A stretch of DNA of 64,000 bases, from NCBI GenBank assembly GCA_965207185.1, contig OZ242271.1, forward strand, positions 3,197,086 through 3,261,085, written 5' to 3'. Both the position numbers and the translations under genes were made by a program. How positions within the stretch are numbered: the first letter of the stretch is position 1; the number at the start of each line of letters is the position of its first letter. Below, piece after piece: positions 17,757 through 58,945 of this stretch. The DNA is from Chloroflexota bacterium. Lineage in GTDB: Bacteria > Chloroflexota > UBA11872. The notes below the pieces were generated by a model. The model did not search any database. It had not been told where the DNA came from and saw only the letters and a program-made list of their open reading frames with translations.

Positions 17757-22400
<4,644 letters not shown>

Positions 22401-25400: not shown

Positions 25401-25876
25401 CGCCGGCGGCCGGTGGCCGGATCGATCTCCGCGGAGAAATAGACGCCGGGCGATCGCACCAACTGGCTCACGACCACCCGCTCGGCGCCGTTGTAGACGA
25501 AGGTGCCTTGGCGTGTCATGAGCGGGAAGTCGCCCATGTACACGACCATTTCCTTGATTTCACCGGTCTGCTTGTTGTGCAGACGCGCCTTTACACGCAG
25601 GGGCGCCTGATAGGTCCGGTCCTGTTCGCGGCACTCTTCTTCGCTGTACTTCGGCTCGTCGAACGCGTCGTCCGGCACTTCAAAGTGCAGTTCCAGGTTC
25701 TTCCCTGTGAAGTCTTGGATCGGCGAGATCTCGGCGAACAGCTCGTGCAGGTATTCGTCCCTGAATCGTTCGAACGATTCGAGTTGGGTGGAGACGAGGT
25801 GCGGCATTTCCAGGATGCTCGGGACGCGCCCATAGTGCCGTTCGTCAAGGCCCGAAGTCGTGCCGTTTGAACTCAT
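22415..25876 (-). CDS. rpoB: DNA-directed RNA polymerase subunit beta
   Basis: 1153 aa with conserved beta regions. SD-like GGGAGCAGG roughly 8 nt upstream of ATG 25876. Confidence 0.97.
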
Positions 25877-33841: not shown

Positions 33842-34738
33842 TCAGCACGATGCGCTGTCCGTTTCTGCTGATCGGTGCGTCGCTAGCGCGCGCAGCACAC
33901 CGCCACAGCCAAGGACACATATTCCGGCCAGCACCAGGGCGCGCAGCGGCCAGGGATCGCCGACATGGTGTTTGGCGTAATAGCGCCACATTGACCTGTA
34001 GAACTCGAATCGAGTCCGAAGCGGGCGCTGCCGCGACGATTGGCGCTTGTGATGCCACACGCGCGCCTGTGGCACGAAGAGCGATTTCCACCCCGCGTTC
34101 GCAAGCCGCCGATGCAGGTCCAGATCATCGCCGTACATGAAAAATTCCGGATCAAACCCGCCAACCGCTGCGAAGGCCGTGCGGCGAACCATGAGACACG
34201 CGCCCGATACGGCGTCAATTTCACTTACGGAAGTGTCCACCGGGTCGCCGGCGTTGTAGAGCTTGATGCCGCTTCGGCTGAGGAATCGCGGGGAGCCAAG
34301 CAGTCGGTGCAACGCGTTAGCCGGTCGCGGAAAGTGCCGGCGAGCCGCCGGATCGAGACGACCGTCGGGCAGTGTCAGCCGTGGGCCGGCCGCGGCGACA
34401 TCCGGGCGATGGTTGAGTTCATTGGCCAGTGTCCCGATTGATGCCGGTTCCGGCTCCGTGTCTGGGTTGAGGAAAAGCACCAGTGGCGCCCGCGTGACGG
34501 TCGCTCCGATGTTGTTGGCGCCGCCGAATCCGAGGGCCGGCGAGCCGCGAATTGCTCGTACGTCGTTACGGGCCAAGAGCATCGGCCACGTGTCATCGCC
34601 ACAACCGTTGTCCACCACGGCGACCTCCAGCGTCTGCGAGCCGCGGGCGGCCTCCAAACTGTCGAGGCACCGCTCCAGCAGCGCGCGAACGTTGTACGTA
34701 GTGATGATGACGGCAACATCGGGATCGGCGGCGGTCAT
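33842..34738 (-). CDS. family 2 glycosyltransferase
   Basis: VAVIITTYN...NPDTEPEP... with GT-A fold DxD context and the ...FFMYGDDLDL.RR... motif typical of GT2. Confidence 0.8.
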   Translation of the reverse strand: MTAADPDVAVIITTYNVRALLERCLDSLEAARGSQTLEVAVVDNGCGDDTWPMLLARNDVRAIRGSPALGFGGANNIGATVTRAPLVLFLNPDTEPEPASIGTLANELNHRPDVAAAGPRLTLPDGRLDPAARRHFPRPANALHRLLGSPRFLSRSGIKLYNAGDPVDTSVSEIDAVSGACLMVRRTAFAAVGGFDPEFFMYGDDLDLHRRLANAGWKSLFVPQARVWHHKRQSSRQRPLRTRFEFYRSMWRYYAKHHVGDPWPLRALVLAGICVLGCGGVLRALATHRSAETDSASC

Positions 34739-35676
34739 TGCCGCCACCGACGCGACAGTCCGACGACGCAGCCCGCCATCTTGGCCACATCGCCAACGAT
34801 CCGTAGGACCGGAACCAGCGCGGGGACCACCAACGGCTGGGCGCCGGCGGTATGCCGGCCCATGGTCGGAGCACGCCGCAGGGAACGGCCCAGATAGGCC
34901 GTGGCCAGCAGTGTCAGGAAGGCCCGGGCCGCCGGCGACGGGTAGAGGAACAGGGCAAGACCCAGGGCATAGGCCCCATACCGCAGGGCGTGCCGCCGCA
35001 TAAGCATGCCCGCGTGTCCATCACCGGCGGCGTACAGAAAGTACTGCCTGAAGAAGGCCGCCACGCTGGAACGTGGGCGAATACCGACGTCGGCGCCCGG
35101 AGCATGGCGGAACCACCCGCCGTTGCGCCAGATTTCGCGGTCCAGCCACAAATCCTCACCGTGGGCGAGCCATTCGGGATATCCGCCGACACGCTGCAAC
35201 CATTCGCGTCGAAAGAGCGCCGACCCGCTGCTTGGCGGATAGCGCGTCGGGTCGATCTGGCGCGCAAGCGGTAGTGCCACCGCACCAAGCGCCGCCTCGA
35301 ACGTCGTTTGCGGCGCGGCCAGAATGTAGCCATAGGATCCCGCTGCAAGCGGTTCGTCCTGGGCGGCGGTAACGAGCGACCGAAGCCAGCCCGATGAGCG
35401 TCGTAGGCCGGCGTCCGTTACCGCCACGAACGGCGCCGTTGTCGCCTCAATCGCGAGATTGCGTCCGGCAGCGATATTGGTTCCCGGAGCCCGTCGCAAT
35501 CTGAATCGCGGGTCGCCGGCAACCGCCCCGTGTAACGCTTCATACGTGCCGTCGGTGGAACCGCCGTCAACAATCACGATCTCGTCGGCCGCCAGGTCCT
35601 GTTCGACCAGACTTGCCACCATCGACGCTGCGTCGGCGGCTTCATTCTTCACGGTGGCGCACACGGCAACGGTCAT
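34735..35676 (-). CDS. family 2 glycosyltransferase
   Basis: MTVAVCATVKNEA...IVIVDGGSTDGT... (GT2 N-terminal signature). I trimmed the start to M11 so that ATGA overlaps the upstream stop. Confidence 0.75.
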   Translation of the reverse strand: MTVAVCATVKNEAADAASMVASLVEQDLAADEIVIVDGGSTDGTYEALHGAVAGDPRFRLRRAPGTNIAAGRNLAIEATTAPFVAVTDAGLRRSSGWLRSLVTAAQDEPLAAGSYGYILAAPQTTFEAALGAVALPLARQIDPTRYPPSSGSALFRREWLQRVGGYPEWLAHGEDLWLDREIWRNGGWFRHAPGADVGIRPRSSVAAFFRQYFLYAAGDGHAGMLMRRHALRYGAYALGLALFLYPSPAARAFLTLLATAYLGRSLRRAPTMGRHTAGAQPLVVPALVPVLRIVGDVAKMAGCVVGLSRRWRQ

Positions 35677-36887
35677 GGTGTTGCTCTCGCCGCGGCTGGC
35701 GTACACGTACGCGCATAGGCGTTGCGGAGCTGCTGCCCAACCATCGAGGCGTCGTGCTCGGCCTTGACGTATATGAATCCCCCGGCGGCCGCCTGCTCAT
35801 AAGCCACCGGGTTCGTAAGCAAGGTCGTTACCGCGTTCACGAAGTCCACGGACCGGGCAGGCCGCCTGACGCCGATATCGTTATTCGCCGGCAGGCCGAC
35901 ATATCCCTGGGCACGGGCCACCACCGGCCGGCCAGCGGCCAGAGCCGACAGCACTTTATATGGCGCACCCGCGGCCACCGACGTGGGCGACACGGCGAGC
36001 CAGGCCCGTTGGTATTCCCGATCGATATCGTCCACGGTTCCGCCCAGCGTAGTTTGCACCGGCATGATCGAACGCAAATCGTCCGACTGCGGACCAACAA
36101 CGCGCAGCTCTGCGCTCGGCACCTCACGCGTGACGGCCGGCCAGACCTGACCAAAGAGCCATTCGGCCGCCAGGAGGTTTGGGCGGTAGGCAAAGTTTGC
36201 GGCAAACAGTACGCGCGGATGCCCGGTTCGGCCGTCAACGCCAGGAGGCGCCGCTCCCAGCCGAACGGGGTGAGGGAGGTACTCCGGCGCCGAGGCGCCC
36301 AGCGCTGCCAGACTTGCGCGGTCGTCAGGGGACGAGGCCAAAACCAAGTCAGCGGATCGTGCCACCCAGCCCTCGACCCGACGCAGCAACCCGGCCTGAC
36401 GGCGTGCCCAGAGGGAGCGTGGAAGGGTACCTGCCCGTGCCAATGATTCTTGCAGCACCCACTCGATATTGTGCGCGTCGTAGATGACGCGCGGTCGTCT
36501 GAACTGACGCGGCGTGACGGTCCAGACGTCGCGAATCATGGGAGCCAGTTGCACCTGCGCCACATGCACCGCCCCATACGCACCGCTGCTCAACAGTAGC
36601 TGGACACGCCCTCGCAGACTGCGGGATCCGTGACGAATGAGCAGATCTGGCACACCTCCACGCCAGCCGCCCAGCAGCCGCCGCCAGACCATTGGCGGCG
36701 CCGCGCGAATTTGGATGACACGATTGATGGACGAAGGCGCCTCAACCGGTGCCGCACCCGGCCGATCGAGTGTGACGAGGTCCACGGTGTGCTCAGCCGC
36801 CAGGGCTTCCAGCAACAGGCTGTTCCGCAGCGCCGCACCGTGGGTCGGTGGCCACGGCGGTGTCGAGGTAATCGCCAGGACCTTCAC
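35673..36887 (-). CDS. GT-B (family 4/group 1) glycosyltransferase
   Basis: MKVLAITSTPPWPPTHGAALR... N-terminus and a C-terminal GT1/GT4-like domain. Confidence 0.75.
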   Translation of the reverse strand: MKVLAITSTPPWPPTHGAALRNSLLLEALAAEHTVDLVTLDRPGAAPVEAPSSINRVIQIRAAPPMVWRRLLGGWRGGVPDLLIRHGSRSLRGRVQLLLSSGAYGAVHVAQVQLAPMIRDVWTVTPRQFRRPRVIYDAHNIEWVLQESLARAGTLPRSLWARRQAGLLRRVEGWVARSADLVLASSPDDRASLAALGASAPEYLPHPVRLGAAPPGVDGRTGHPRVLFAANFAYRPNLLAAEWLFGQVWPAVTREVPSAELRVVGPQSDDLRSIMPVQTTLGGTVDDIDREYQRAWLAVSPTSVAAGAPYKVLSALAAGRPVVARAQGYVGLPANNDIGVRRPARSVDFVNAVTTLLTNPVAYEQAAAGGFIYVKAEHDASMVGQQLRNAYARTCTPAAARATP

Positions 36888-37951
36888 GTGCAGGCCCTGT
36901 ACACCGCCAGCGTGTCACGCGCCGTTCGTTCCCAGCTGTATTCGCTCGCTCGGGCACGGCCCCCGGCACTCAGCCGGCCGCGCAGATCAGCATCGTCAGC
37001 CAGCCGATCGATGGCTCCGGTCAACCCGTCCGCATCGTTCGGGTCAATCAGCAGAGCGTCGTCGCCGACAAGCTCGGGCAGCGTGCCGGCCCGGGCCGCG
37101 ATCACGGGCGTTCCACATCCCATCGCTTCGAGTGCGGGAAGGCCGAATCCCTCATCATGCGAGGGCATGAGCACGAACTCGGCCTGCGCAAACAGTCGCG
37201 CCAGGGTTGCATCGGCCACCCGTCCAAGAAACCGCACCGTGCTCGTTCCCTGCTCGGCCCGGACGGCTCGGATGATGGCCGACCCGCGGTAGCCGATCGA
37301 CCCGACAATCAGCAGGGATCCCTGGCGAGCGAAGCGAGAGGCGCCAAACGCACGCGCCGCCAGCCCGATATTCTTGCGCGGCTGGATGGTTCCAACCATC
37401 AATGCGAAGGGCGCAGGCCATTCCCGGCGCTGGCGCCCAGCCGTGACCGCCGGTAGCCCGGACGCATACGGAACGACCGTCACACAATCCGCCGAAACCA
37501 GGTCGCGTCCCACCAGCGCCGACCGCATGTGCTTGGACGGGACGATAATCCTTCTCGCCCGACGCAGCGTCCCAATCGAGGCCGCATAGTGCCGACGGCT
37601 GGCTGCCGAATGTGTCTCAGGCTGAGTGAGAAACGAAATGTCGTGCACGGTCACAATCGCGGGCCGATTGACGCCGTGCGGTATCCCGTGGTCGGGAAAG
37701 TGCACCAGGTCGGCGCCGCGCAGGGCCCGCGGCAGAAACGCGCGTTCCAGCCGGTTGCGGGCAGGAACCGCCACCGGGCGCGCGCGGAGCGACGGGTGGC
37801 CGGGAAGTCCGCCGCGTCGATCCACGAGTAGCTCCAGGTCGATGCCCGTGTGCGGAAGCTTGGCCAGGGCCTCTTGCAGACGCCAGATGTAGCGCCCGAT
37901 CCCTGCCTGGTCGTGTCGAAGCATTCGCCCGTCCAGCGTTACGCAGGTCAT
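36884..37951 (-). CDS. GT-B (family 4/group 1) glycosyltransferase
   Basis: C-terminal ...LMPSHDEGFGLPALEAMGCGTPVIAARAGTLPELVGD... (E-x7-E GT4 motif). Confidence 0.8.
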   Translation of the reverse strand: MTCVTLDGRMLRHDQAGIGRYIWRLQEALAKLPHTGIDLELLVDRRGGLPGHPSLRARPVAVPARNRLERAFLPRALRGADLVHFPDHGIPHGVNRPAIVTVHDISFLTQPETHSAASRRHYAASIGTLRRARRIIVPSKHMRSALVGRDLVSADCVTVVPYASGLPAVTAGRQRREWPAPFALMVGTIQPRKNIGLAARAFGASRFARQGSLLIVGSIGYRGSAIIRAVRAEQGTSTVRFLGRVADATLARLFAQAEFVLMPSHDEGFGLPALEAMGCGTPVIAARAGTLPELVGDDALLIDPNDADGLTGAIDRLADDADLRGRLSAGGRARASEYSWERTARDTLAVYRACT

Positions 37952-39333
37952 GGCTGTTCACACGCCCCTTGGGCAACTCGCGTGACGATCAACCCAACCA
38001 GCGCCCCAAGCAGGTAGACGAGGTGCGGAAAGCTCGCGATGTGATGGTCGAACAGTCCCGCGGTGGCGAACGCCACCAGCGAAGCCAGCAACGGCCGGAC
38101 CTCCGGATCGGCGGCCGACGACCTGATGGCTGCCCACGTCGTGACGCCAATCAGGGTCAGATGCGTCAGCGCGGCGCCGACGCCCGCGCGCTCGGCCAGC
38201 CAGAGCCAGGCATTTGAAACCCCGGCAAAAATATCCGGATGCGGCGCGTCGCCATATCCCACGCCCAGGAGCGGAAATCGGCTGATGACGCGGGACGCCT
38301 CGCGAATCTCGTCAAGTCGCAGCGCCGCGGAACGGTCGCCGCCCAGAAAGCCTTGGCGAATTCGTTCAAATGGCTCCAGTGGCGCGGCCACGACCGCGGC
38401 GCCCAGCACGGCCGCTGCCGCCGCCGCCAGACGCGGTCGGACCAGCGCCAGCCACACCAGCAGACCGGCGGCGGCGGCAATCCAACTCGCGCGCGAAATC
38501 GTCAACGCCAGGGCCACACCAATCAGCGCTGCGGCGGCTAATCCCAGCGCGGAGCGCCGTCGGCCGCCGCCAAGCCACGCCAACCCAAACGGCAGCGCCG
38601 CCGCCAGGGTGACGCCCAGGACGTTGGGATCGACCAACAGCCCTGTCGCTCGCACCGTCACTTGGTCCGGCAAGAAACGCGCCACGCCCGTAGTCGGGTA
38701 TCCGGCCGTTCCGAGCGACTCAAGCAACCGGATTCCCTTCGCCCCCACCACGTGCAGACCGATGGCGACAACGGCTTGGCAGGCGGCTGCGACGGCGACG
38801 AAGGAACCAACGGTCCGCAGCGAGCGCGGTCCCAGACCCGACATCCTCACCATCAGCGGCGCCAAGCCGTAAAGCGACATCTTCACCGCTAGTTGCCCCG
38901 CCTGGACGTCGCTTGACGCTCCGTGTGCCGCGACGCCGGCGGCCAACGGCAGCGCCGCCCCCAGAGCTACCACGCCCACGAACCATCGGGGGGGCACTTC
39001 CCATCCGCCGATTGCCGCGGGCCGGCTCCGGATCGCTCGCACTGCAATCCCTGCGAACGTCGCCGCCACGATGACGTCGAGAACCGGCGGCTGCACGCCG
39101 AACCGCTGGGGAACCACCAGGAAAGGCGCCAACAGAGCCACGCCCAGTGCCGTCACAAGGCCGGCCGCCGGCCGCATGAGACCAAGCCCGGCCCCCAGGA
39201 CGGCAACGCCACCGGCCAGCGCCGCCGGCGGCGGCCTGGCCCCACCAAGCACGCCGGCTAGGATCGCGGCCAAAGCCAGCGCCGAGAGAATCGTCAGCCG
39301 CGTGCCTGCGCTGGGCAGCCTGGCCGCAGTCAC
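37948..39333 (-). CDS. O-antigen ligase/polymerase-like (Wzy_C family) polytopic membrane protein
   Basis: 461 aa, roughly 10-12 predicted TM helices, large periplasmic-loop region ...ALTISRASWIAAAAGLLVWLAL... typical of the Wzy/WaaL family. Confidence 0.65.
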   Translation of the reverse strand: MTAARLPSAGTRLTILSALALAAILAGVLGGARPPPAALAGGVAVLGAGLGLMRPAAGLVTALGVALLAPFLVVPQRFGVQPPVLDVIVAATFAGIAVRAIRSRPAAIGGWEVPPRWFVGVVALGAALPLAAGVAAHGASSDVQAGQLAVKMSLYGLAPLMVRMSGLGPRSLRTVGSFVAVAAACQAVVAIGLHVVGAKGIRLLESLGTAGYPTTGVARFLPDQVTVRATGLLVDPNVLGVTLAAALPFGLAWLGGGRRRSALGLAAAALIGVALALTISRASWIAAAAGLLVWLALVRPRLAAAAAAVLGAAVVAAPLEPFERIRQGFLGGDRSAALRLDEIREASRVISRFPLLGVGYGDAPHPDIFAGVSNAWLWLAERAGVGAALTHLTLIGVTTWAAIRSSAADPEVRPLLASLVAFATAGLFDHHIASFPHLVYLLGALVGLIVTRVAQGACEQP

Positions 39334-47684: not shown

Positions 47685-48488
47685 TTATCGGGCCCCCGCC
47701 GAGATCGTCTGGATCAGCCTGACCACTTCCTCCACCGCAATCTCGTAGTACTGCCGTCCCAGGTCCGCCGTCGCGGCCCGCGCATCGTCGCTCAGGCCCG
47801 TGATTCGAGCGCCCGGAAACGACATGTACACCACGTCCGCCACGTTCACGGACGCGCCCATCGTGGACATCCCCAACTTTGGCCACCCCGAGCTTCTCGG
47901 GTCGTCCCGATCCGCGTGCTCGATCGGCAGCAGGTCGTCGCGCACCAGGTCCGGATCCAGGTGCAGCATCAGCGACGTTTCAAAGTCGCCCCCGTGCCCG
48001 GGCACGTGCACCTGGCGGCTGGCCTGTACCGCCTCCAGTCGCGGCCGGGCGATGTCCCAATAGGCGCCCGCGGCCACCCGCACGTCCGGGTGCTGGAGCA
48101 CGAAGTCTCGGGCCGCCTGCTGAATCAACAGGATGTTGCCGCCGTGCCCGTTCAGGATCAGGACGCGCCGAAACCCGGAAAGCGTCAGGCTCTCAAGCAG
48201 TTCCAGGAGGACCAGGCTGAACGTGCTGCTGCGCAGGGTGAGCACACCGGGAAACGGCCGGTGATGATCGGAGCTGCCAAAGTGCAACGGCGGGCTCACG
48301 ATCACGTCAAGCTCGCCTGCCGCCTCGGCCGCCCCGCGCGCCACCGCCATGCAACACATCGTGTCCAGCCCGATCGGGTTATGCGGCCCGTGTTGCTCGA
48401 TCGCTGCCGTCGGAAGAATCGCCACGGCCTCGGGCGCGCGCGCCCCAACTTCATCACGGTTCAGACGTTCCAGCGCCGTATACGCCAT
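47685..48488 (-). CDS. creatininase-family amidohydrolase
   Basis: ...AILPTAAIEQHGPH.P...D.........ILNGHGGN.....AAR..........AGAYWD... creatinine amidohydrolase fold signature. Trimmed to ATG 48488 (MAYTALERL...). Confidence 0.7.
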   Translation of the reverse strand: MAYTALERLNRDEVGARAPEAVAILPTAAIEQHGPHNPIGLDTMCCMAVARGAAEAAGELDVIVSPPLHFGSSDHHRPFPGVLTLRSSTFSLVLLELLESLTLSGFRRVLILNGHGGNILLIQQAARDFVLQHPDVRVAAGAYWDIARPRLEAVQASRQVHVPGHGGDFETSLMLHLDPDLVRDDLLPIEHADRDDPRSSGWPKLGMSTMGASVNVADVVYMSFPGARITGLSDDARAATADLGRQYYEIAVEEVVRLIQTISAGAR

Positions 48489-48648
48489 CGGGTGACCTCG
48501 CAGCGTCGATCCGGCGAATCGTGCCCGGCCGTGCGGTCGCTGGCAAGGCAACCCGAACGCAGATCTGCGGTCAGCGGCGCGGCCGGCGCCGTACGTCCCG
48601 ATGGCCGCCCCCGAACCGGGCCCGCGCCGTCGTCGCGCCGCCGGCGGC

Positions 48649-51165
48649 CTAGCCCTCGGCGACGGCCCCTACGGCGGCTTCTGTCGGCGCTTCCTCCCCG
48701 GTCTCGGCGTCCGTTGCAAACGAGAATTCACCGTCCACCACATCCACCCGCACGGTGCTGCCCGCGCCACACTCCTCGCGCAGCAGCATCCGGGCAATCA
48801 CGTTTTCGATCTCCCGCTGCATCGTCCGGCGCAACGGGCGCGCCCCGTAATTCGGATCCCAGCCCATGGCCAGCACCAGGTCCTTGGCCGCGGTAGTGAG
48901 TTCCACGGCGATCCGCTGCCCTTCCAGCCGCGCCGCCAGTTGCGAGGCCATCAGGTCCACGATTTCTCGCAGCTGCGGTTGCGTCAGCGAGTGGAAGATG
49001 ATGATCTCGTCGATCCGGTTCAGGAACTCGGGCCGGAATCGCCGCCGCAGGTCGGTCATCAGGCGGGCGCGCATCTCGCGATGGTCCCGCGCCTCGGCCG
49101 CCGCGTCGTCCCCGGCGGGCACCCCGAAGCCAAGCTGGTTCTCCCGCCGGATGTGTTGCGCCCCCACGTTCGACGTCATGATGATGATCGTGTTGGCAAA
49201 GTTGACGTGGCGGCCGTGGCCGTCGGTCAGCCGGCCGTCGTCCAGCACCTGCAGCAGCACATTGAACACCTCGGGGTGCGCCTTTTCGATCTCGTCGAAC
49301 AGCACCACCTGGTATGGGCGGCGGCGCACCCGTTCCGTCAGCTGCGCCGCGTCGTCGTAGCCCACGTAACCCGGCGGCGCCCCAATCAGGCGGCTCACCG
49401 TATGCCGCTCCCCGTACTCGGACATGTCCACCCGCAGCAGCGCCGCTTCGTCGTCGAACATGAACTCGGCCAGCGCCCGCGCCAGTTCGGTCTTTCCGAC
49501 GCCCGTCGGACCCAGGAATATGAACGAACCGATCGGCCGCGAGGGATCCCCGATCCCGCTGCGCGACCGCCGAATCGCGTCGGCCACCGCCGTCACCGCC
49601 TCATCCTGGTTGATCAGGCGCCGGTGCAGCGCCGTTTCCATGCCCAGCAGGCGCTCCGCCTCTTCCTCGAACATCCGCGCCACCGGCACGCCGGTGATGC
49701 TTGAGACCACCTCCGCCACGTCGTCCGCGTCCACTGTCTCGGTCAGGTCCTGCTCGGCCAGCCACTTCTTGCGGGCCGACTCCAACTGCGCCTCGTTCTG
49801 CAGGACTTCGGACTTCAAGTTGGCCGCCCGCTCGTAATCGCGCCGCCGCCAAGCCGCCTCTTCGTCGGCCTTCAGGTCGTCAATGACCTTCATGGCCTGC
49901 CGGAGCTCGTCCGGCGCATCGAAGATGTCCACCCGCACCTTGGCCGCCGCCTCGTCGATCAGGTCGATGGCCTTGTCAGGCAGGAAGCGCTCGGTGAGAT
50001 AACGTTCCGACAGTTCCACCGCCGCTTGCAGCGCCGCGTGGCTGATCGTCAGGCCGTGATGATCCTCGTAGCGGTCGCGCACGCCCTCCAGCACCTGCAC
50101 TGTCTCCTCGATGCTCGGCGCCTCGATGTGCACCGGCTGGAAGCGGCGCGCCAGCGCCTTATCTTTCTCCACGTGTTGCCGGTACTCGTCGAGCGTGGTC
50201 GCGCCGATCGCCTGCAATTCGCCGCGCGACAAAGCCGGTTTCAGCATGGTCGCCGCGTCGATCGCGCCCTCGGCCCCGCCCGCGCCCACGGCCTGGTGCA
50301 GCTCGTCAAAGAACAGGATGATCTGGCCCTCGGAGGCCCGCACCTCGTTGATCACCGCCTTCAGCCGCTCTTCGAATTCTCCCCGGAACTTGGCGCCGGC
50401 CAGCATGGCGCCCATGTCCACGGCCAGCAGTTCGCGCCCGCGCAACAACTCCGGCACGTCGCCGCCGGCAATCCGCTGCGCCAGACCCTCCACGATGGCC
50501 GTCTTCCCCACGCCCGGCTCGCCGATCAGGGCCGGGTTGTTCTTAGTCCGCCGGGCCAGCACCTGGATCACCCGCCGGATCTCGGCCTTGCGCCCGATGA
50601 CCGGATCCAGTCGGCCGGCGCGCGCCATGTCCGTCAGGTTGACGCTGTACTTCTCGAGTACTTCGTAGCGGCTCTCCGCGCTCGGCGTGGACGAGCGCTG
50701 CGCGCCGCGAATCTCGCGCAGCGCCCGATACACCCCTTCCGCGTCGATCCCGATCGAGCGCAGGATGCGCCCGGCCTGCGTGTCCTGCGACTTGGTCAGC
50801 GCCAGCAGCAAGTGCTCGTTGCCCACGTATTCGTCGTCCAGCCGGTCCGCTTCCTCGCCGGCCGCCTGGATCGTTGCCACCGCCTGCGGCGTCACGAACA
50901 TCTGGCCCTGCGCAATTGGTCCGTCGGCCTGGTCCGAGGTCACCCGCGGCTTTGCCCCCAGGGCGCGCTTCGCTTCGCCGCGCGCCAGGTCCGGCGAGAC
51001 GCGCAGGCGTTGCAGAATCCGCACCGCCAGCGAGTCGTTCTGATCCAGCAGCGCCATCAACACGTGATCGGCGTCCAGCTGGTTATGACTGCTCTCCAGC
51101 ATGATCGACTGCGCCCGCTGGATCGTCTCCTGCGCCTTCTCCGTGAATTTCTCGAAATTCATCAT
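48649..51165 (-). CDS. clpB: ATP-dependent chaperone ClpB
   Basis: 838 aa: N-domain, two AAA+ modules (GEPGVGKT...; GPTGVGKTE...) with middle coiled-coil. Confidence 0.95.
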
Positions 51166-51581
51166 CGTGGCGGCCGTCTGTCTCGGTAGCGACCGGCGCC
51201 GGGCTCCCTGGTCGCGCGCTGCAGCGCATTTCGGAGTCGTTGAATCTCGGCCTCATAGCGCTGCCGGAGTTCCGTCAGATCGCGCTGATGCTCCGCCGCC
51301 TGCCGCTGATACCGGTCGCGCATGTTCAACACCACCTCAACCCCGGCCAGGTTCACGCCGAGTTCGGAGGTCAGCCGCTGGATCAGCCGCACCCGCTCGA
51401 TGTCCTCCTGCGAGAACATGCGCACGTTGCCGGGCGAGCGGCTGGGCGTGAGCAGGCCGATCCGTTCGTAATGCCGCAGGGTCTGCGGGTGGATTTCGGT
51501 GATCTCCGCCACCACCCCGATGAAGTACGCCGGCCGTGAGTGAAGGTCGTCCGGGTCGTCGCCGTCGCGGTCGAACACCAC
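51162..51581 (-). CDS. hspR: MerR-family heat-shock repressor HspR
   Basis: 139 aa: MerR HTH ...YFIGVVAEITEIHPQTLRHYERIGLLTPSR... Located after dnaJ and overlapping clpB, the classic hspR position. Confidence 0.85.
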   Translation of the reverse strand: MVFDRDGDDPDDLHSRPAYFIGVVAEITEIHPQTLRHYERIGLLTPSRSPGNVRMFSQEDIERVRLIQRLTSELGVNLAGVEVVLNMRDRYQRQAAEHQRDLTELRQRYEAEIQRLRNALQRATREPGAGRYRDRRPPR

Positions 51582-51582
51582 G

Positions 51583-52518
51583 TCAGTTCACCGCCGAGGG
51601 TGTGGGAACTTCCCCGCGGATAGCCGCCAGTTCTTGAAACAACTCGCGTTCGCGCGCGCTCAGGTTTCGCGGAAGGCGCACCTGGATTCGCACAAACATG
51701 TCGCCGCGCTCGCTGCCGCCGCGTCGCGGCAGTCCCTGACCGCGCAACCGCAACCTTCTGCCATGTTGCGTCTCCGGCGGTACGCGCACCGATAGGGACG
51801 AGCCGGACGCCGTCGGAACTTGCACCGAGGTTCCCAGCACCGCCTCGGTAAGCTCGATTGCGACCTCCGTCTCCAGGTCGTCGCCCGTGCGCTTGAATCC
51901 GGGTTCAGCATCCACGCGGACTCGAAGGAACAGGTCCCCCCGCGAACCGTCGGCCCGCACCGCCCCTTCGCCCGCCACCCGCAGCCGCTGCCCGTCGCGC
52001 ACGCCTTTCGGAATCGTCACGTCGATCCGCCGCTGGCGCACGCGGCCGTCGGGCGACGGCACCTGCATCGTCAAGGCCCGGCGCCCGCCGTTCAGTACCT
52101 CGTGCAGGCTCACCGGCAACGTCTCTTCAACATTCGCCTGCTGCGGTCGCTGCGCACGCTGCGGCCGGGCGCGACCGCCGAAGAGCGCGTCAAAGAAGTC
52201 GCTGAATCCCGACGCCCCGCCGCCGCCGAACAAGTCGCCGAACCCGTCCATGCGCGCGCCGCTTTGCCGAAACGCTTCGTCGAACGATCCCGTGCGCCGC
52301 CAGTTCGACCCGAAGCGGTCGTACTGCTGCCGCTTCTCCGGATCGCTCAGCACCTCGTGCGCCTCGTTGATCTCCTTGAACCGCGACTCCGCCGCCGGGT
52401 CGTCCGGATTCACGTCCGGGTGGTAGCGCCGCGCCAGGCGCCGGTAGGCCGACTTGATGTCGTCCGGCGACGCGTTCCGTGGAACACCCAGGGTCTGGTA
52501 GTAGTCCTTGTATTCCAC
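51583..52518 (-). CDS. dnaJ: DnaJ-class co-chaperone, class II (CbpA-like; J-domain, no Zn finger)
   Basis: J-domain YYQTLGV...HPDVN; no CxxCxGxG repeats; C-terminal CTD I/II. Confidence 0.85.
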
Positions 52519-52527
52519 GCGCGCCGC

Positions 52528-53028
52528 CTATGTCCCGTCGTCCGAGACGGCCACTTCCACCCGCGCCGCGCGCAAGACGTCGTCGCCCCAGCGATACCCC
52601 GCCTGGAGCTCGGCGGTGATCGTGCCTGCCGGCACGTCGGCGCTGGGACGCGTGGCCACGGCTTCATGCCAGTAAGGATCGAAGGCGCCGTCCGTCTCGA
52701 TCGAGCGGACCCCCCGCGCCTGCAGCAACGCGTCCAGCCGGCCGCGGGTGAGCTGGACGCCCTCCCGCGCGCTCGCCGCGTCGGATCCCGCGTCCAGCGC
52801 CGCCAGCGTCCGATCAAGATCGTCCGCCACGCTCAGGATGTCGCCCAACAGCGACGACTTGGCCTGCTGGATCAGGTCGTCCGTCGTGCGGTTGACCCGC
52901 TTGCGAAAGTTGTCCATTTCGGCGCGCAGGCGCAGAAGCTGGTCGTTCAGCGCCTCCACCTCCGCCTCCAGTTCGGCTTCGCGCTCGCTGTTGGCATCGG
53001 CCTCGCGCTCGCGTGAATCAGCGTTCAT
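52528..53028 (-). CDS. grpE: nucleotide exchange factor GrpE (copy 2)
   Basis: The ORF is open to 53301, but the GrpE-like sequence starts at MNADSREREADANSEREAELEAEVEALNDQLLRLRAEMDNFRKRVNRTTDD... Trimmed to ATG 53028, 7 nt after the dnaK stop. Confidence 0.85.
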   Translation of the reverse strand: MNADSREREADANSEREAELEAEVEALNDQLLRLRAEMDNFRKRVNRTTDDLIQQAKSSLLGDILSVADDLDRTLAALDAGSDAASAREGVQLTRGRLDALLQARGVRSIETDGAFDPYWHEAVATRPSADVPAGTITAELQAGYRWGDDVLRAARVEVAVSDDGT

Positions 53029-53035
53029 CGGACCT

Positions 53036-54940
53036 CTACTTCTCGTCCGCGGCCTCGAATTCGGCGTCGACCACATCGTCGTCCGCCGCAGCCTCGCCCG
53101 CGTCTGGGGCCGCTTCGGCGCCGTCGGCGCCCGGCGCCGCCTGGTACATCTGCTCGCCCAGCTTCTGGGCCGCGGTCTGCAACACCGCCACCGCGCTCCG
53201 GATTGCCTCCAGATCCTCGCCCTCCAGGGCCTTGCGCACGTCCGCGATCGCCCGCTCCGCCGCCTCCCGGTCAGCCGCCTCGATCTTGTCGCCGTTCTCA
53301 CTGATCAGGCGCTCGGTCTGATAGGCCAGGCTGTCGGCGTTGTTGCGCAGTTCAGCCTCCTCGAGTTGCTGGCGGTCTTCCGCGGCGTGCTGCTCAGCCT
53401 CCTTGACCAGCGCCTCCACCTGATCATCGGACAGGTTGGTGCTGGCCGTGATCGTGATGCGCTGTTCCTTGGCCGTCGCCAGGTCCTTGGCCGAGACGTT
53501 CACAATCCCATTGGCGTCGATGTCGAACGTCACTTCGATCTGCGGCACGCCGCGTGGCGCCGACGGAATACCCTCCAGCCGGAAGCGCCCCAGCGTCGTG
53601 TTGGCCCGCGCCATCGGGCGTTCGCCCTGCAGCACGTGAATGTCCACCGCCGTCTGCCCGTCGTCGGCCGTCGAGAAGATCTCCGACTTGCTGGTCGGGA
53701 TCGTCGTGTTGCGCGGAATCAGCGCCGTCAGCACGCCGCCCAGCGTCTCCACGCCCAGCGACAGCGGCGTCACGTCCAGCAGCACCACGTCCTCGACCTC
53801 GCCGGCCAGCACGCCCCCCTGGATCGCGGCGCCAATGGCCACCACCTCGTCGGGGTTCACGCCCTGGTTGGGATCCTTGCCGGTCAGCTCGCGCACCAGC
53901 GCCTGCACGGCCGGCATGCGCGTCGACCCACCCACCATCACCACCTCGTTAATCTCCGAGGCCCGGATGCCGGCATCGCCCAGCGCGCGCCGGAACGGCT
54001 CCACGCAGCGCTGCGTCAGGTCCTGCGTCAGCCGCTCGAACTCCGCCCGCGTCAGCGCCACGTCCAGGTGCTTCGGCCCGGTCTGGTCCGCCGTGATGAA
54101 CGGCAGGCTGATCTGCGTCTGCGGTACCGACGACAACTCCTGCTTGGCCTTCTCCGAGGCCTCGATCAGCCGCTGCAGCGCCTGCGGGTCCTTGCGCAGG
54201 TCAATGCCCTCGGCTCGCAGGAAGCCATCGGCCACGTGGTCCACCACCCGTCGGTCATAGTCGTCGCCGCCCAGGTGGGTGTCGCCGTTGGTGGCCTTGA
54301 CCTCGAACACGCCGTCGCCCACCTCCAGGATGGTCACGTCGAACGTCCCGCCGCCCAGGTCCCACACCAGGATCGTCTCGGCCCCGCGCTTGTCCAGCCC
54401 GTACGCCAGCGCCGCCGCCGTGGGCTCGTTGATGATGCGCCGCACGTTCAGGCCGGCAATCTCGCCCGCGTTGCGGGTCGACTGGCGCTGCGAGTCGTTG
54501 AAGTACGCCGGCACCGTGATCACGGCGTCCGTCACGTCCTCGCCCAGGTACTTCTCCGCGTCCGCCTTCAGCTTCTGCAGCACCACCGCCGAAATCTCTT
54601 CCGGAGTCACCTCGCGCCCGCTCTCCGGGATCTTGATCAGCACTTCGCCCGCGCGGCCCTCGGTCACGTCAAAGGTCACCGCGGCCGACTCGTCGCCCAC
54701 TTCCGTGAGCCGCCGGCCGACAAACCGCTTGGAGGAATTGATCGTGTTCTTGGGATTCATCACCGCCTGCCGCCGGGCCAGCTGCCCGACCAGGCGCTGA
54801 CCGCCCGCGCCGTACGCCACCACCGACGGCGTCAGGCGGCTGCCCTCGGAGTTCGTGACCACGTTCGGGTCGCCGCCCTCCATCACGGCAACGACCGAAT
54901 TCGTCGTCCCCAGGTCAATCCCAATGATCTTGCTCGCCAT
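53036..54940 (-). CDS. dnaK: chaperone DnaK (Hsp70)
   Basis: 634 aa: [14 protein letters not shown]...DLGGGTFD..., full Hsp70. Confidence 0.97.
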
Positions 54941-54950
54941 CTGCTGCCTC

Positions 54951-57401
54951 CTAGGCTGATCCGGACGCGGCTGCCGGTCCCTGTTGATCCGTCGCCGCGG
55001 ATTCGTTCATCAATACGGTTGCTAGCACGGTGTCCATGTCGTCAACCCATACGAAGCGCATCTGCTTGCGCACCCGCATGGGGATGTCGTCCAGGTCGGA
55101 TCGGTTCTCTTCCGGTGCGATCACGGTGTGCAGGCCGGCCCGATGCGCGGCCAGCACCTTCTCCTTCAGGCCGCCGATCGGCAGCACGCGCCCCCGCAGG
55201 GTCACCTCGCCCGTCATCGCAATCTCGCGCCGCACCCGGCGGCCGGTCATCGCCGAGATGATCGCCGCGCCCATCGTGATCCCGGCGGACGGCCCGTCCT
55301 TCGGCACCCCGCCGGCCGGCACGTGCACGTGCAGGTCGCGCTCGGCAAACAGCCCGGGATCCACGCCCAGCACGCCGGTGCGCGCCCGCGCAAACGACAG
55401 CGCCGCGCGGGCCGACTCGCTCATCACGTCGCCCAGCTGCCCGGTCAGGCGCACCTTGCCGGCGCCCGCGATCCAGGCCGCCTCCACGTCCAGCACCTCG
55501 CCGCCGACCGGCGTCACCGCCAGGCCCGTCGCCACGCCCACTTCCGGCGTGCGCAACTCGTCCTCCGGCAGATATTTCGCCGGCCCCAGCGCCGATCGCA
55601 CCCGGCGCGGCGTCACCCGCGCGGCCGTTCGGTTGTTGGCCGCGATCCGGCGAGCCAGCTTGCGGCACACCGCCGCCAGTTCGCGCTCGAGGTTCCGCAC
55701 CCCCGCCTCGCGGGTGTAGTGCCGAATGACCTCGCGCACCGCCCGATCGGTAAACGTAATGCCGGACTTCCGCAAACCGTGGCTGCGAATCTGCCGCGGC
55801 AACAGGTATCCCTGCGCGATCCGCACCTTCTCGTCTTCCGTATACCCGCTCAGCTCGATGACCTCCATCCGGTCCCGCAGCACCGGCGGAATGTCCTCGG
55901 CCGTGTTCGCCGTGGTCACAAACAGCACCCGCGAAAGATCGAACGGCACTTCCAGGTAGTGGTCCGAGAAGCTGTGGTTGTATTCCGGGTCCAGCACCTC
56001 CAGCAGCGCCGACGAGGGATCGCCCCGGAAATCTCGGCCGATCTTGTCGATCTCGTCCAGCAGCATCACCGGATTGCGCGAGCCGGCCCGTCGCAGCGCC
56101 TGGATGATCCGGCCCGGCAGCGCCCCCACGTAGGTGCGTCGATGCCCGCGGATCTCGGCCTCGTCGCGCACCCCGCCCAGCGAGATGCGCACGAACTCGC
56201 GACCCAGCGCCCGCGCGATCGAGCGGCCCAGGCTCGTCTTGCCCACCCCCGGCGGACCCGCGAAACAAACGATCGGGGTCCGGAATTTGGACGAAATTGC
56301 GCGCACCGCCAGGAACTCCAGCACCCGCTCCTTGGGCTTCTCCAGCCCGTAGTGATCGCGGTCCAGCACACGCCGCGCGCGCGCCAGGCTGCGGTGGTCG
56401 CGCGTTTCGTGCGCCCACGGCAGCGCCAGCAGCCAGTCCAGGTAGCTTCGAATCACTCCCACCTCGGGCGAGGTCGGCGGCGTCGCGTCCAGCCGCGAAA
56501 TTTCCTGCTGCGCCTTCGCCGCCACGTCCTTCGGCAAGTCCGAGGCGTCCACCCGGTCGCTCAGGTCCTGCGCGTCGTCCGTCTGCGGGCTGGATATGCC
56601 TAGTTCCCGCTGGATCGCCCGCAGCTGCTCGCGCAGGTAATAGTCGCGCTGCACCTTCTCAATCCCGTCCTGGATCTCGCCCTGGATCTTGTTGCGAATG
56701 TTCAGAATCTCGACCTGCTTGGCCAGATAGCGCGCCACAAAGCGCAGCCGCTCGGTCAGATCCAGCGTCTCCAACACCGTCTGCCGCTCGTGCGGCGACA
56801 TGTCCGACGAAAAGGCCACATAGTCCGCCAGCCAGCCGGGATCGCCGGCGCGGCGTGTCATGGCCACCGTCTCGGGAGCGAACATGTTCGTCTCCTCCGC
56901 CACCCCCTCCACGTGCGTCACCACCACCCGGCGCAGCGCCTCCAGCTCCAGCGACGGGCTATACCGCACCGTCAGCGGCGTCACGCGGGCTTCAAAGTGC
57001 TCCGCCACCTGCGTGATCTCGTCCACCGACGCCCGATACTGGCCTTCCAGCAACACCTGTACGCCGCCGTCCGGCATGCGCAGCCGCCGGATCACCTTGG
57101 CTGCCGTGCCCACCGAGCACAGGTGCTCCGGATCCACGGTCTTGCGCGCCCGGCGCTGCGTCACCACCACGACCAGGTCGCCGCTGTCGGCCGCCGCCGC
57201 CAGCGCGTCCACCGAGACGGCTCGGCTGGCGTGCAGCGGCATCGTCAACTCTGGATAGGCCACCCAGTCGGGCAACGGCACCACCGGCAGGCGCGTCGAC
57301 TCCGGACGCACCGAAACCACGGTGCGCCGCGGTACCGCCTGCCCGCTTCCCTGATCCTCGCTGCCGTCGGCTTCGGCCTCGGCGCGTTTCGATCCAGTCA
57401 T
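54951..57401 (-). CDS. lon: ATP-dependent Lon protease (LonA)
   Basis: Lon N-domain, AAA+ (GPPGVGKTS), protease domain with catalytic Ser in DGPSAGIT and Lys in ...[12 protein letters not shown]. The ORF-track start (57440) is a TTG inside a TTGACA -35 box. I place the start at ATG 57401 ([10 protein letters not shown]...). Confidence 0.9.
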
Positions 57402-57411
57402 ATCAGGCACG

Positions 57412-57441
57412 ATAGTAGGTATTGAGTGAGTCACTGTCAAG
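57412..57441 (-). promoter_or_regulatory. Candidate sigma70-type promoter (TTGACA-17-TACTAT) overlapped by a HAIR-like HspR operator, immediately upstream of lon
   Basis: Minus strand 5'-CTTGACAgtgactcACTCAATacc TACTAT cgtgcctgat ATG. HAIR consensus is CTTGAGT-N7-ACTCAAG; here CTTGACA-N7-ACTCAAT matches 11/14 with the correct 7-nt spacer. The -10 box ends roughly 10 nt before the ATG, implying a leaderless or near-leaderless mRNA. Confidence 0.5.
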
Positions 57442-57532
57442 TAATCTTACTTACTTCCAGTCAGTATCATCTCGCCGCCCGCACCGGCACTCACCACGAT
57501 TGCTCCGCGAGATCGGGGGCGTCCGCCCTGTC

Positions 57533-58945
57533 CTAACCGCGGATCCCCACGCCCGGCGGGGCGGCCGTGGCCACACCTGCCGCGGGGCATTCGCCGCACC
57601 ACTTTTCCCGGCACCAGCGGCGGTATATCCGCAGCAGCCCTTGCTGCGCCAGCGCCGATCCCAGCCCGCGTCGTTCCAGCCGCAGCGTGTCGGCCATGTA
57701 GCGCGTGTGACGGTTCCAGCCAACCGATCCCAGGCCGGCCAACACCGTGGCGGCCGCGTCGACCAGTTCGGGCCGCCGCGACCAGCCCCCCAGCGCCGCC
57801 GCGAACGGCAGCACCGCGTTCACCAGCACCTCCAGGCTCCGCCCGCGCCCGATCAGCGCCGGCAGCGGCCGCGCCGCCCGCCGCCCCACGTCCAGGCGCC
57901 GCGCCCAGAAGTCCTCCGGACCTACTCGTACTTGGAACCACTCGACCAGGTCGCGACCGCGCCCTTCGTCGTTGGCGTTCAGCACCTGCCCCGCCAGCCG
58001 CTCCGCCAGCCGACGCCGCGCCATTGGCGCCATGCTCAACAGCCTGGCCGCCCCCGCCAGTCGCCGCGCCGGCCGGTTGTGGGGGCGCACCGCCGCCAGC
58101 GTCCAGTCCTCGACCGCCGGCGCCGCGCGCGGCGAGCCGCTGGCCCAGGCCTCCTCGAGCGCGTGCTCATGCGAGTGCTCCGCTTGCTGCCCTCGCTGGC
58201 TCGGCAGCAACCCCGCCGCTCCAAGCAGCTCAGCCTCCACCCGGATCCGCCGCGCCGTCAGCGACGGCCCCGCCAGCGAACTCAGCAGCTCGATCGGCGC
58301 CGCCTCGGCCACCGCCTCGAATTGCTCGGTGTTGGCGCTATATCCCAGCGCCCGCATAATCGCCCGATACAGCGCCTGGTCCGCACCCAGCGCCTCGATG
58401 TCGCTCTCCAGCACCGCCGCCCGCTCCCTGTGCCGCCGCAGACCCTCCGCCTCCACCGTCGCGCGCACGTCCTCCCGGGCCGCCGGCCGCGATCCTGCGA
58501 TCCAGCACGGCCACCCGGCCGGCTTCGCACGCTGACCTCGACGCTCCCCGCGATTGGCCAGCGCCTGCGTCGCCACAATGCACGGCGGCCGGGTCGAGTC
58601 GCTGCGGGCCGCCGCCGTCCAGACCAGGTGCAACAAGTCACCGGCGTAGCGCGCGTCCGCGTCGTGCCCATGCGCCCCCCAGGACGCCTCGTGCAGGTGG
58701 ACTTCCACGTGGATCCGGCGCGCCGGACCGCCCTCAATGCTTACGATCGCGTCTTGCAGGTCCGGACCTGCCAGGCCCGTCCGTCGGCCGGGGTATACCA
58801 CCTCGATCGATCGCCCCAGTGAATCGCGCATGGGACCGGCACGCGAGGCAACCTCCAGCCACAATTGCACCAGTTCGGCTTCGGACCCCGGCCGCGGCGG
58901 GTCGCCGACCCCGATTGCGTCGCGCGTCAACGACAACTCCGTCAC
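57533..58945 (-). CDS. conserved hypothetical protein (possibly DUF2851-like; C-terminal CxxC...CGEC cluster)
   Basis: 470-aa ORF with host-like codon usage and ...HVEVHLHEASWGAHGHD... and ...WCREKWCGECPA... motifs. Function unknown. Confidence 0.55.
   Translation of the reverse strand: MTELSLTRDAIGVGDPPRPGSEAELVQLWLEVASRAGPMRDSLGRSIEVVYPGRRTGLAGPDLQDAIVSIEGGPARRIHVEVHLHEASWGAHGHDADARYAGDLLHLVWTAAARSDSTRPPCIVATQALANRGERRGQRAKPAGWPCWIAGSRPAAREDVRATVEAEGLRRHRERAAVLESDIEALGADQALYRAIMRALGYSANTEQFEAVAEAAPIELLSSLAGPSLTARRIRVEAELLGAAGLLPSQRGQQAEHSHEHALEEAWASGSPRAAPAVEDWTLAAVRPHNRPARRLAGAARLLSMAPMARRRLAERLAGQVLNANDEGRGRDLVEWFQVRVGPEDFWARRLDVGRRAARPLPALIGRGRSLEVLVNAVLPFAAALGGWSRRPELVDAAATVLAGLGSVGWNRHTRYMADTLRLERRGLGSALAQQGLLRIYRRWCREKWCGECPAAGVATAAPPGVGIRG

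Follow-up and report, generated by a model that had tools for sequence, protein, structure and literature searches.

Can the regulon of the heat-shock repressor HspR be held together behind one promoter and one copy of its operator? The question is raised by a stretch of 64,000 nucleotides (nt) from a Chloroflexota bacterium (GTDB lineage UBA11872; assembly GCA_965207185.1, contig OZ242271.1, positions 3,197,086 to 3,261,085), hereafter called the window, in which six heat-shock genes lie side by side on the minus strand. HspR and the HspR-associated inverted repeat (HAIR) are known to form a regulon in Streptomyces, Mycobacterium, Deinococcus, Helicobacter and Campylobacter (PMC2687793, PMC6102357, PMC7464140). 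Among the HspR targets are lon in Streptomyces and the Lon-family gene lonB in Deinococcus, each present as a separate gene (PMC2687793). For the window we propose, with a probability of about 0.7, a six-gene proteostasis operon, lon-dnaK-grpE-dnaJ(class B)-hspR-clpC, which would be transcribed from one promoter of the sigma-70 type, with a -35 hexamer and spacer that also serve as an HspR-type operator.

The identity of the genes was assigned from NCBIfam and Pfam profile matches, and all coordinates given here are those of the window. The first gene, lon (54951–57401), encodes a LonA protease of 816 amino acids (aa), with 889.6 bits to TIGR00763 against a cutoff of 608. It is followed by dnaK (53036–54940; 634 aa; NF001413, 970 bits against a cutoff of 648) and by grpE (52528–53028; 166 aa; PF01025), whose ATG was placed at 53028. 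The dnaJ gene (51583–52518; 311 aa) encodes a class B protein of the CbpA or Thermus type, which has a J domain and DnaJ_C, no zinc-finger domain and zero cysteines in its sequence. The last two genes encode an HspR-like repressor of the MerR family (51162–51581; 139 aa) and a Clp/Hsp100 ATPase of the ClpC type (48649–51165; 838 aa; identified by NCBIfam and Pfam matches and by alignment with ClpC). With the grpE start at 53028, the junctions from lon to clpC are, in order, 10, 7, 9, 1 and -4 nt. A GGAGG Shine-Dalgarno sequence ahead of dnaK is placed inside the 10-nt gap after lon, hspR begins 1 nt past the stop codon of dnaJ, and the hspR stop and the clpC start share a 4-nt ATGA overlap. 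The locus has the features by which operons are recognised, namely a single strand, short or overlapping junctions and a conserved gene order. A preliminary description of this DNA, made from the letters alone, had reported six head-to-tail heat-shock genes on the minus strand with gaps of at most 10 nt, HspR encoded among them, a last gene overlapping hspR by 4 nt and a 160-nt space downstream of it, and the annotation agrees with each of these points. The spacer (48489–48648, minus strand) separates clpC from a creatininase-family gene, and its figure of 160 nt assumes that this gene starts at the probable ATG at 48488.

On the minus strand across 47.5–58.5 kb (11 kb), a promoter scan with a threshold of at least 9/12 matching positions found a sole promoter-like site, which sits in the 130-nt gap between a DUF2851 gene and lon. 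It consists of the -35 hexamer TTGACA (57435–57440), a spacer of 17 nt and the -10 hexamer TACTAT (57412–57417), and matches the consensus at 10 of 12 positions. The perfect -35, the spacer length and the -10 had been described before as the only obvious promoter, together with an 11/14 match to HAIR, CTTGACA-N7-ACTCAAT, placed at the -35; both observations hold. This HAIR-like operator, CTTGACA-GTGACTC-ACTCAAT (57421–57441, minus strand), covers the -35 and the 14 adjoining nt of the spacer, and the -35 hexamer doubles as its left arm. The 11 of 14 positions are shared with the sequence CTTGAGT-N7-ACTCAAG, including the arm spacing of 7 nt. In comparison with the minimal HspR operator, TTGAGY-N7-ACTCAA (PMC2687793), 10 of 12 positions are identical and the right arm is perfect.

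Relatives of the locus were collected in two sets. With the Lon protein as query, a scan that covered one genome per species provided 25 loci, all from Chloroflexota metagenome-assembled genomes (MAGs), many of them from sponges; the Lon proteins of the clade that contains the window (clade A) are 89–98% identical to that of the window, and those of clade B about 71%. A protein search with HspR provided homologues at 55–73% identity from marine, sponge and lake assemblies. Wherever one of the 25 genome loci is long enough, tblastn with the six proteins recovered the order lon-dnaK-grpE-dnaJ-hspR-clp. All six genes are present on those contigs of the HspR homologues that cover the complete unit, and two contigs truncated at their ends (L030 and L031) keep the order for the part that is present. 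The order is thus conserved over HspR identities of 55–98%, and the junctions called in the relatives are mostly of 46 nt or less. The upstream neighbour in the relatives is either the DUF2851 gene or a divergently transcribed gene for a solute-binding protein, and because of the divergent neighbour lon must own its promoter in several of them. One of the relatives, OY764080.1, is a complete MAG of 3.55 Mb, with a Lon protein 98% identical to that of the window. In another (L022:4348-4363), the lon match of tblastn is split into residues 1–472 and 470–809, which indicates a frameshift or an assembly error.

The promoter is conserved together with the genes. Each of the 24 loci with DNA upstream of lon has a single copy of TTGACA-N8-CTCAA, located at the lon promoter in every case. 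In the alignment of 30 promoters (A1) the invariant positions are TTGACA, CTCA and, in the -10, the initial TA and the last T; the A that follows CTCA is conserved in at least 90%, and the eight columns between the operator arms vary freely. Since unconstrained non-coding DNA should be randomised at such divergence, the four to five fixed positions of the spacer are the footprint of a factor other than RNA polymerase. A second HAIR-like site (at least 11/14) was found in no intergenic or promoter position of 625 kb, comprising the window and loci of relatives; five other matches of this quality in those 625 kb lie elsewhere and look like chance. As far as these alignments indicate, promoter and HAIR-like element are conserved as a unit in the relatives.

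Conservation in this region also extends upstream of the -35 hexamer, where an A+T-rich block of 32 nt, GAGATGATACTGACTGGAAGTAAGTAAGATTA (57442–57473, minus strand), is directly attached. The block is nearly invariant in the 11 closest relatives, in which 41 of the 75 columns for the first 25 lon codons are variable. In the distant relatives only the sub-blocks ATACTGA and AAGTnAGATT persist, and a single A at -7 is invariant in all 30 promoters. This block may represent an UP-like element or provide additional flanking contacts for the repressor, as in H. pylori.

A blind search of metagenomes was based on the pattern TTGACA-N8-CTCAA-N4-TANNNT, with 14 specified bases, and at least 120 contigs matched it. 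Genes downstream of the matches, on the same strand, were identified in 120 listed contigs by tblastn with the six proteins of the window. Among these listed matches a heat-shock gene lies downstream in 39 of 120, and the first such gene is dnaK in 23, a Clp ATPase gene in eight, grpE in four, dnaJ in three and lon in one, this lone lon-first contig being a relative of the window lineage. The two bases before CTCAA, left unspecified in the pattern, are C (37/39) followed by A (33/39) in these contigs, a preference that rebuilds the HAIR arm ACTCAA. The association depends on the last of these bases. Among the matches listed, a heat-shock gene lies downstream in 33/55 when this base is A, in 5/18 when it is G, in 1/21 when it is C and in 0/26 when it is T.

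Three of the listed contigs carry hspR behind the module, in the arrangements grpE-dnaJ-hspR (L118), dnaJ-hspR-clpB (L133) and hsp20-like-dnaJ-hspR-clpB (L148), and encode HspR proteins 46–50% identical to that of the window. An hsp20-like gene followed by a Clp ATPase gene is present in L080, L085, L113, L134, L079 and L044, and the ATPase is shown to be of the ClpB type for the first three; "hsp20-like" refers here to an alpha-crystallin-like sequence, judged by eye with no family search. The leaders of hsp20-clpB pairs from different contigs look alike, as exemplified by TTTTATGCTTCTTTTACGCTAAC. The window and these unrelated contigs have in common the module TTGACA-N6-CACTCAA-N4-TANNNT, which also precedes dnaK alone in 23 contigs. 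Promoters with the operator in the -35 and spacer are therefore a common type at heat-shock genes and occur in company with hspR, and the assignment of the HAIR-like motif as a putative operator is now well supported. The operator element itself is not new.

Other elements considered for this promoter were discarded. A perfect 5-1-5 palindrome, AGTGA-C-TCACT, lies inside the spacer of the operator (57424–57434); it was rejected as a conserved element, since among the aligned sequences it is present only in the window, L002, L010 and L024, and it is probably incidental. No controlling inverted repeat of chaperone expression (CIRCE), the operator of HrcA, was found in the window with up to three mismatches. 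Sites for CtsR, RheA and sigma-32 were rejected, in a comparison of their consensus sequences by eye, because the invariant bases of the promoter alignment do not fit them.

The product of the fifth gene belongs to the MerR family by its helix-turn-helix domain (PF13411, 65.2 bits; PF00376, 48.5 bits; both above their cutoffs). In NCBIfam it is matched best by NF047377, a model for fused-dimer HspR (108.5 bits, cutoff 300), and next by the HspR equivalog NF047375 (104.0 bits); the third match is a MerR family with only 50 bits. Homologues of this protein are named "heat shock protein HspR" by JGI, and the gene is next to dnaJ in all relatives, which is the linkage to chaperone genes expected for hspR. 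The PDB matches include no HspR structure, and the best solved relatives are GlnR/TnrA and other MerR proteins.

The last gene had been taken for clpB, an identity that is not sustained. In a comparison with solved structures, residues 1–809 of B. subtilis ClpC align with residues 2–822 of the protein in one stretch (E = 3.8e-260), and ClpB structures match it only in two separate stretches. The long middle domain of ClpB, a coiled coil of about 120 residues, is missing; the short middle domain present aligns to ClpC free from gaps, including a UVR-like segment, and the residues LGF at 678–680 align with VGF of the ClpP-docking loop of ClpC. The (L/V)GF sequence and the length of the middle domain are kept in 26 relatives. 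The ClpB model TIGR03346 gives 1067 bits against a cutoff of 1232. In addition, the ClpBs encoded behind the same promoter type elsewhere present a middle-domain insertion of 64–65 residues in relation to the window protein and have the LGF loop deleted. The position of clpB in other HspR operons thus appears to be held here by a ClpP-coupled type of unfoldase. Neither clpP nor an adaptor gene was identified among the annotated genes of the 64-kb window.

The start of the operon raises a second question, which is how lon is translated. The ATG at 57401 lies exactly 10 nt past the -10, the first T of which is 16 nt before it; it is preceded by CGTGCCTGAT, with no Shine-Dalgarno sequence. In all 17 clade-A sequences the ATG is at +39 from TTGACA, which is again 10 nt past the -10. 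The first 22 or so residues of the protein (57338–57401) are acidic and variable, and their number differs by whole codons among relatives. After this variable extension come a conserved motif and, from residue 38 on, the Pfam substrate-binding domain. Because insertions and deletions ahead of the conserved PRRTV motif leave the frame intact, the ATG at 57401 was accepted as the start of lon. Other candidates were rejected: the TTG at 57440, which begins a longer open reading frame in the output of the finder, is the -35 hexamer itself; the GTG at 57410 is only 1 nt past the -10; and the GTG codons at residues 28, 29 and 31 are inside or after the conserved PRRTVVSV motif.

Leaderless genes are marked by TANNNT about 12 nt ahead of the start codon, and among the Chloroflexi they were detected in 4 of 12 genomes, where their share was estimated at about 5% of the genes (PMC3160421). 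From the distance of 16 nt between the first T of the -10 and the ATG, a leader of about 3–4 nt is predicted for lon. The preliminary description had called the lon mRNA effectively leaderless, and this is correct in part: the ATG 10 nt past the -10 and the missing Shine-Dalgarno sequence are consistent with it, while the 16 nt exceed the usual 12 or so and the geometry varies among relatives. In L026, L029, L032 and L122 the ATG is 6 nt past the -10, which corresponds to the canonical leaderless geometry of 12 nt from the first T (L026:3724-3761, L029:3976-4013, L032:3997-4034). The distance is 9 nt in L027 and 10 nt in clade A. On the other hand, clade B and L028 present a conserved GGAG and a GTG start 32 nt past the -10 (L028:4125-4188). 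An in-frame ATG 8 nt past the -10 is kept in 5 of the 8 clade-B loci (L015–L021 and L025); the three without a usable ATG near the -10 comprise two with in-frame stops and one with none in frame. The same promoter-operator thus appears to drive orthologous lon genes with different initiation modes, one of leaderless geometry and the other led by a Shine-Dalgarno sequence. We infer that a leaderless lon mRNA is plausible and depends on the lineage.

From these features the following circuit can be proposed. In the normal state, a dimer of the HspR encoded in the operon would bind CTTGACA-N7-ACTCAAT and block RNA polymerase at the -35 and spacer, possibly with DnaK as co-repressor, as in Streptomyces (PMC2687793, PMC4063869). 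Elsewhere dnaK, clpB and lon are in vivo targets of HspR, and DnaK is its co-repressor (PMC2687793, PMC6102357, PMC4063869). Proteotoxic stress would free the promoter, either through titration of DnaK or through destabilisation of HspR, and one polycistronic mRNA would be produced for Lon, for DnaK/GrpE/DnaJ, for more HspR, providing negative feedback, and for the ClpC-type unfoldase. Translation of lon would proceed from an mRNA with no leader or a very short one (about 0–4 nt), and that of the downstream genes by their own Shine-Dalgarno sites or by coupling across the junctions of 1 to 10 nt. The rise of HspR, and of DnaK if it is a co-repressor, would shut the promoter again.

Several points weigh against this reading. 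The 11/14 match to HAIR is by itself within chance: the window has three matches of this quality where 0.89 would be expected, and 6 of 100 shuffles do as well. Only the core TTGA-N11-TCAA of the operator is symmetric, which makes it a weak inverted repeat, and a repeat finder applied to the promoter region reported no inverted repeat. The conservation of the left arm is uninformative about a repressor, because this arm is the consensus -35. The score of NF047375 is 1 bit under its cutoff of 105. No intrinsic terminator was recognisable on the coding strand after clpC, and the folding of the 173-nt region 3' of this gene is no more stable than that of shuffles (z = +1.15). Internal promoters in coding sequence are poorly predicted at a G+C content of 65%. 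While gene identities, geometry, the conserved order and operator and the association of the module with heat-shock genes were read directly, binding, repression, the signal, the start of transcription and co-transcription are inferred from the DNA. The operator assignment gains its significance from the conservation in relatives and from the enrichment in metagenomes, and not from the match alone.

The alternative that survives best, which we nevertheless hold to be unlikely, is a conserved cluster formed by several transcription units. Promoters inside lon, dnaJ or hspR would then drive dnaK, clpC or both, and the HspR site would control mainly lon; such an arrangement overlaps with the single operon and does not exclude it. 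The weakness of promoter prediction at high G+C, in a scan that demanded at least 9/12 positions, leaves room for such promoters, and dnaK has its own strong GGAGG site. Moreover, dnaK and clpB each have their own operator-promoter copy elsewhere, which suggests that independent control is ancestral. However, with junctions of -4 to 10 nt there is no space for them between the genes, neither a second HAIR-like site (in the window or in related loci) nor another promoter-like site on the coding strand was found inside the operon, and the order and tight spacing are kept at only 55–71% protein identity.

It is improbable, and clearly more so than the previous case, that CTCAA is read by another factor, either a different repressor or a lineage-specific sigma factor making contact there, with HspR acting elsewhere or not as a repressor at this locus. 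The element corresponds to the right arm, ACTCAA, of the experimentally defined HspR operator (PMC2687793), and an hspR homologue is found behind the same module in the window and in the unrelated L118, L133 and L148. The genes downstream of the module (dnaK, grpE, dnaJ, hsp20-clpB and lon) are those of the known HspR regulon (PMC2687793), and the window is free from CIRCE elements. The possibility of another factor is kept alive by the poor palindrome of the site and by the nearest solved relatives of the repressor, which are MerR proteins of the GlnR/TnrA type, with no HspR structure to compare.

A role of the MerR-like protein mainly as a CbpM-like modulator, which would bind the J domain of the class B J-protein and compete with DnaK without being a repressor, is very improbable. 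This idea comes from the gene arrangement, since a zinc-finger-less, CbpA-like J-protein gene with a MerR-like gene 1 nt after it resembles cbpA-cbpM of E. coli and cbpA-hspR of H. pylori; in its structure CbpM is related to MerR proteins, and HspR of H. pylori is modulated by CbpA (PMC4063869). On the other hand, the two best NCBIfam matches of the protein are HspR models and the MerR helix-turn-helix families match it. No CbpM family or chain was found among the NCBIfam or PDB hits at E ≤ 0.001, although the presence of a CbpM model in NCBIfam is unconfirmed. In addition, the promoter of its own operon carries a conserved HspR-type operator. Finally, the view that the HAIR-like match arose by chance, as a side effect of a strong promoter within A+T-rich intergenic DNA, suggested by the shuffles and by a left arm that is simply the consensus -35, is effectively refuted, as judged from the five consecutive spacer positions fixed in 30 promoters amid randomised neighbours and from an enrichment that hangs on an unspecified base (A against T, as counted above among the matches listed).

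The surroundings of the operon are also conserved. The DUF2851 gene (57533–58945) is the upstream neighbour and the creatininase-family gene (47685–48551) the downstream one; this flanking synteny is kept upstream, and also downstream in most relatives examined. Past the creatininase-family gene are genes of the shikimate pathway, for EPSP synthase, DAHP synthase and shikimate dehydrogenase. The window has a G+C content of 65%, and the relatives are all labelled as MAGs of Chloroflexota bacterium. A translation and transcription block with secY and the genes for S8, L14, L22, L2, L23, S7, S12 and tuf occupies positions 2997–25876 of the minus strand and includes rpoC (17757–22400) and rpoB (22415–25876); because of this block of ribosomal-protein and rpo genes, the window can be considered chromosomal core DNA. 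The G+C content climbs steadily along positions 1–64000, from 0.62 on the left to 0.72 on the right. At third codon positions it is 0.84–0.92 in the four heat-shock genes scored (lon, dnaK, hspR and clpC), compared with 0.72–0.80 in the ribosomal-protein and rpo genes. A glycosyltransferase cluster (GT2, GT2 and GT4) with a gene similar to those for Wzy and O-antigen ligase lies at 33842–39333, also on the minus strand. A search of the whole window with Rfam at gathering thresholds indicated no RNA family, and so no known RNA thermometer or leader, and no tRNA was found in the window.

How does this locus relate to the systems already known? The resemblance is strongest with Streptomyces and Mycobacterium, where HspR of the MerR type is also encoded directly after dnaJ and the dnaK operon is autoregulated, as would be expected here by analogy. 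The operator of the TTGAGY-N7-ACTCAA type that overlaps the promoter is likewise shared (PMC2687793, PMC6102357), and so is the gene set of Lon, DnaK/GrpE/DnaJ and a Clp/Hsp100 ATPase. The arrangement is different: those bacteria have dnaK-grpE-dnaJ-hspR, with clpB and lon as separate targets, and the window has one promoter and one copy of the operator, with lon first. A layout that begins with lon had been pointed out before as departing from the textbook, and in fact lon is a separate HspR target in Streptomyces (PMC2687793). The window also differs from the two actinomycetes by an ATPase of the ClpC type with a ClpP-docking loop in place of ClpB, by a J-protein without zinc finger, by a left arm that is a perfect -35 (CTTGACA, not CTTGAGT) and by its host, a member of the Chloroflexota. 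In Deinococcus radiodurans the HspR targets are scattered over several promoters, and in the window they are fused.

The module TTGACA-N6-CACTCAA-N4-TANNNT is found in identical form in lineages with split operons, which are dnaK alone, hsp20-clpB, grpE-dnaJ-hspR, dnaJ-hspR-clpB and hsp20-dnaJ-hspR-clpB. In these lineages the regulon is distributed over at least two to three promoters and does not contain lon, the ATPase is a true ClpB and the leaders have 50–170 nt. A similar set of genes is found in the Thermus thermophilus operon dnaK-grpE-dnaJ-dafA-clpB, in which dafA encodes an assembly factor. It shares with the window the DnaK system, a DnaJ without zinc finger, an Hsp100 gene and a small gene between dnaJ and the Hsp100 gene, and differs from it in that dafA is not a MerR repressor, the Hsp100 protein is ClpB and lon is absent. 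The pairs cbpA-hspR of H. pylori and cbpA-cbpM of E. coli also have a class B J-protein gene with a gene of the MerR fold immediately after it (PMC4063869, PMC6102357). They are, however, units of two or three genes without dnaK, lon or clp, and CbpM does not bind DNA. The locus is a compact variant of a known circuit and not a new kind of system. What differs here is the whole set behind one operator, the first position of lon, the ClpC type in place of ClpB, the class B J-protein, the phylum and the near-leaderless first cistron. A full-text search of one literature collection found no paper on HspR regulation in Chloroflexi or on this gene order, which is not proof of novelty.

A more far-reaching version of the proposal is doubtful. 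It would have the cytosolic proteostasis network collapsed into a regulon of one operator. HspR would have no target in the genome other than this repressed, near-leaderless promoter, on which the levels of Lon, DnaK/GrpE/DnaJ, HspR and a ClpP-coupled ClpC would depend. ClpC would then have displaced ClpB as the Hsp100 partner of DnaK, and degradation would be favoured over disaggregation.

The control of dnaK, clpB and lon by HspR and HAIR is textbook knowledge for actinomycetes, and the present analysis does not overturn it. The module TTGACA-N6-CACTCAA-N4-TANNNT offers a practical search key, with heat-shock promoters in about a third of the blind metagenome matches listed. The locus belongs to a phylum with almost no regulatory genetics, and among the members of the lineage are many sponge symbionts and uncultured bacteria from the sea and from lakes. 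Other lineages with this promoter have ClpB in the position of the ClpC-type ATPase, a difference that hints at a turn from disaggregation toward degradation. In this lineage, the operon suggests that a whole HspR regulon can fuse behind one operator, which would make it a minimal and easily testable model of the co-regulation of chaperones and proteases.

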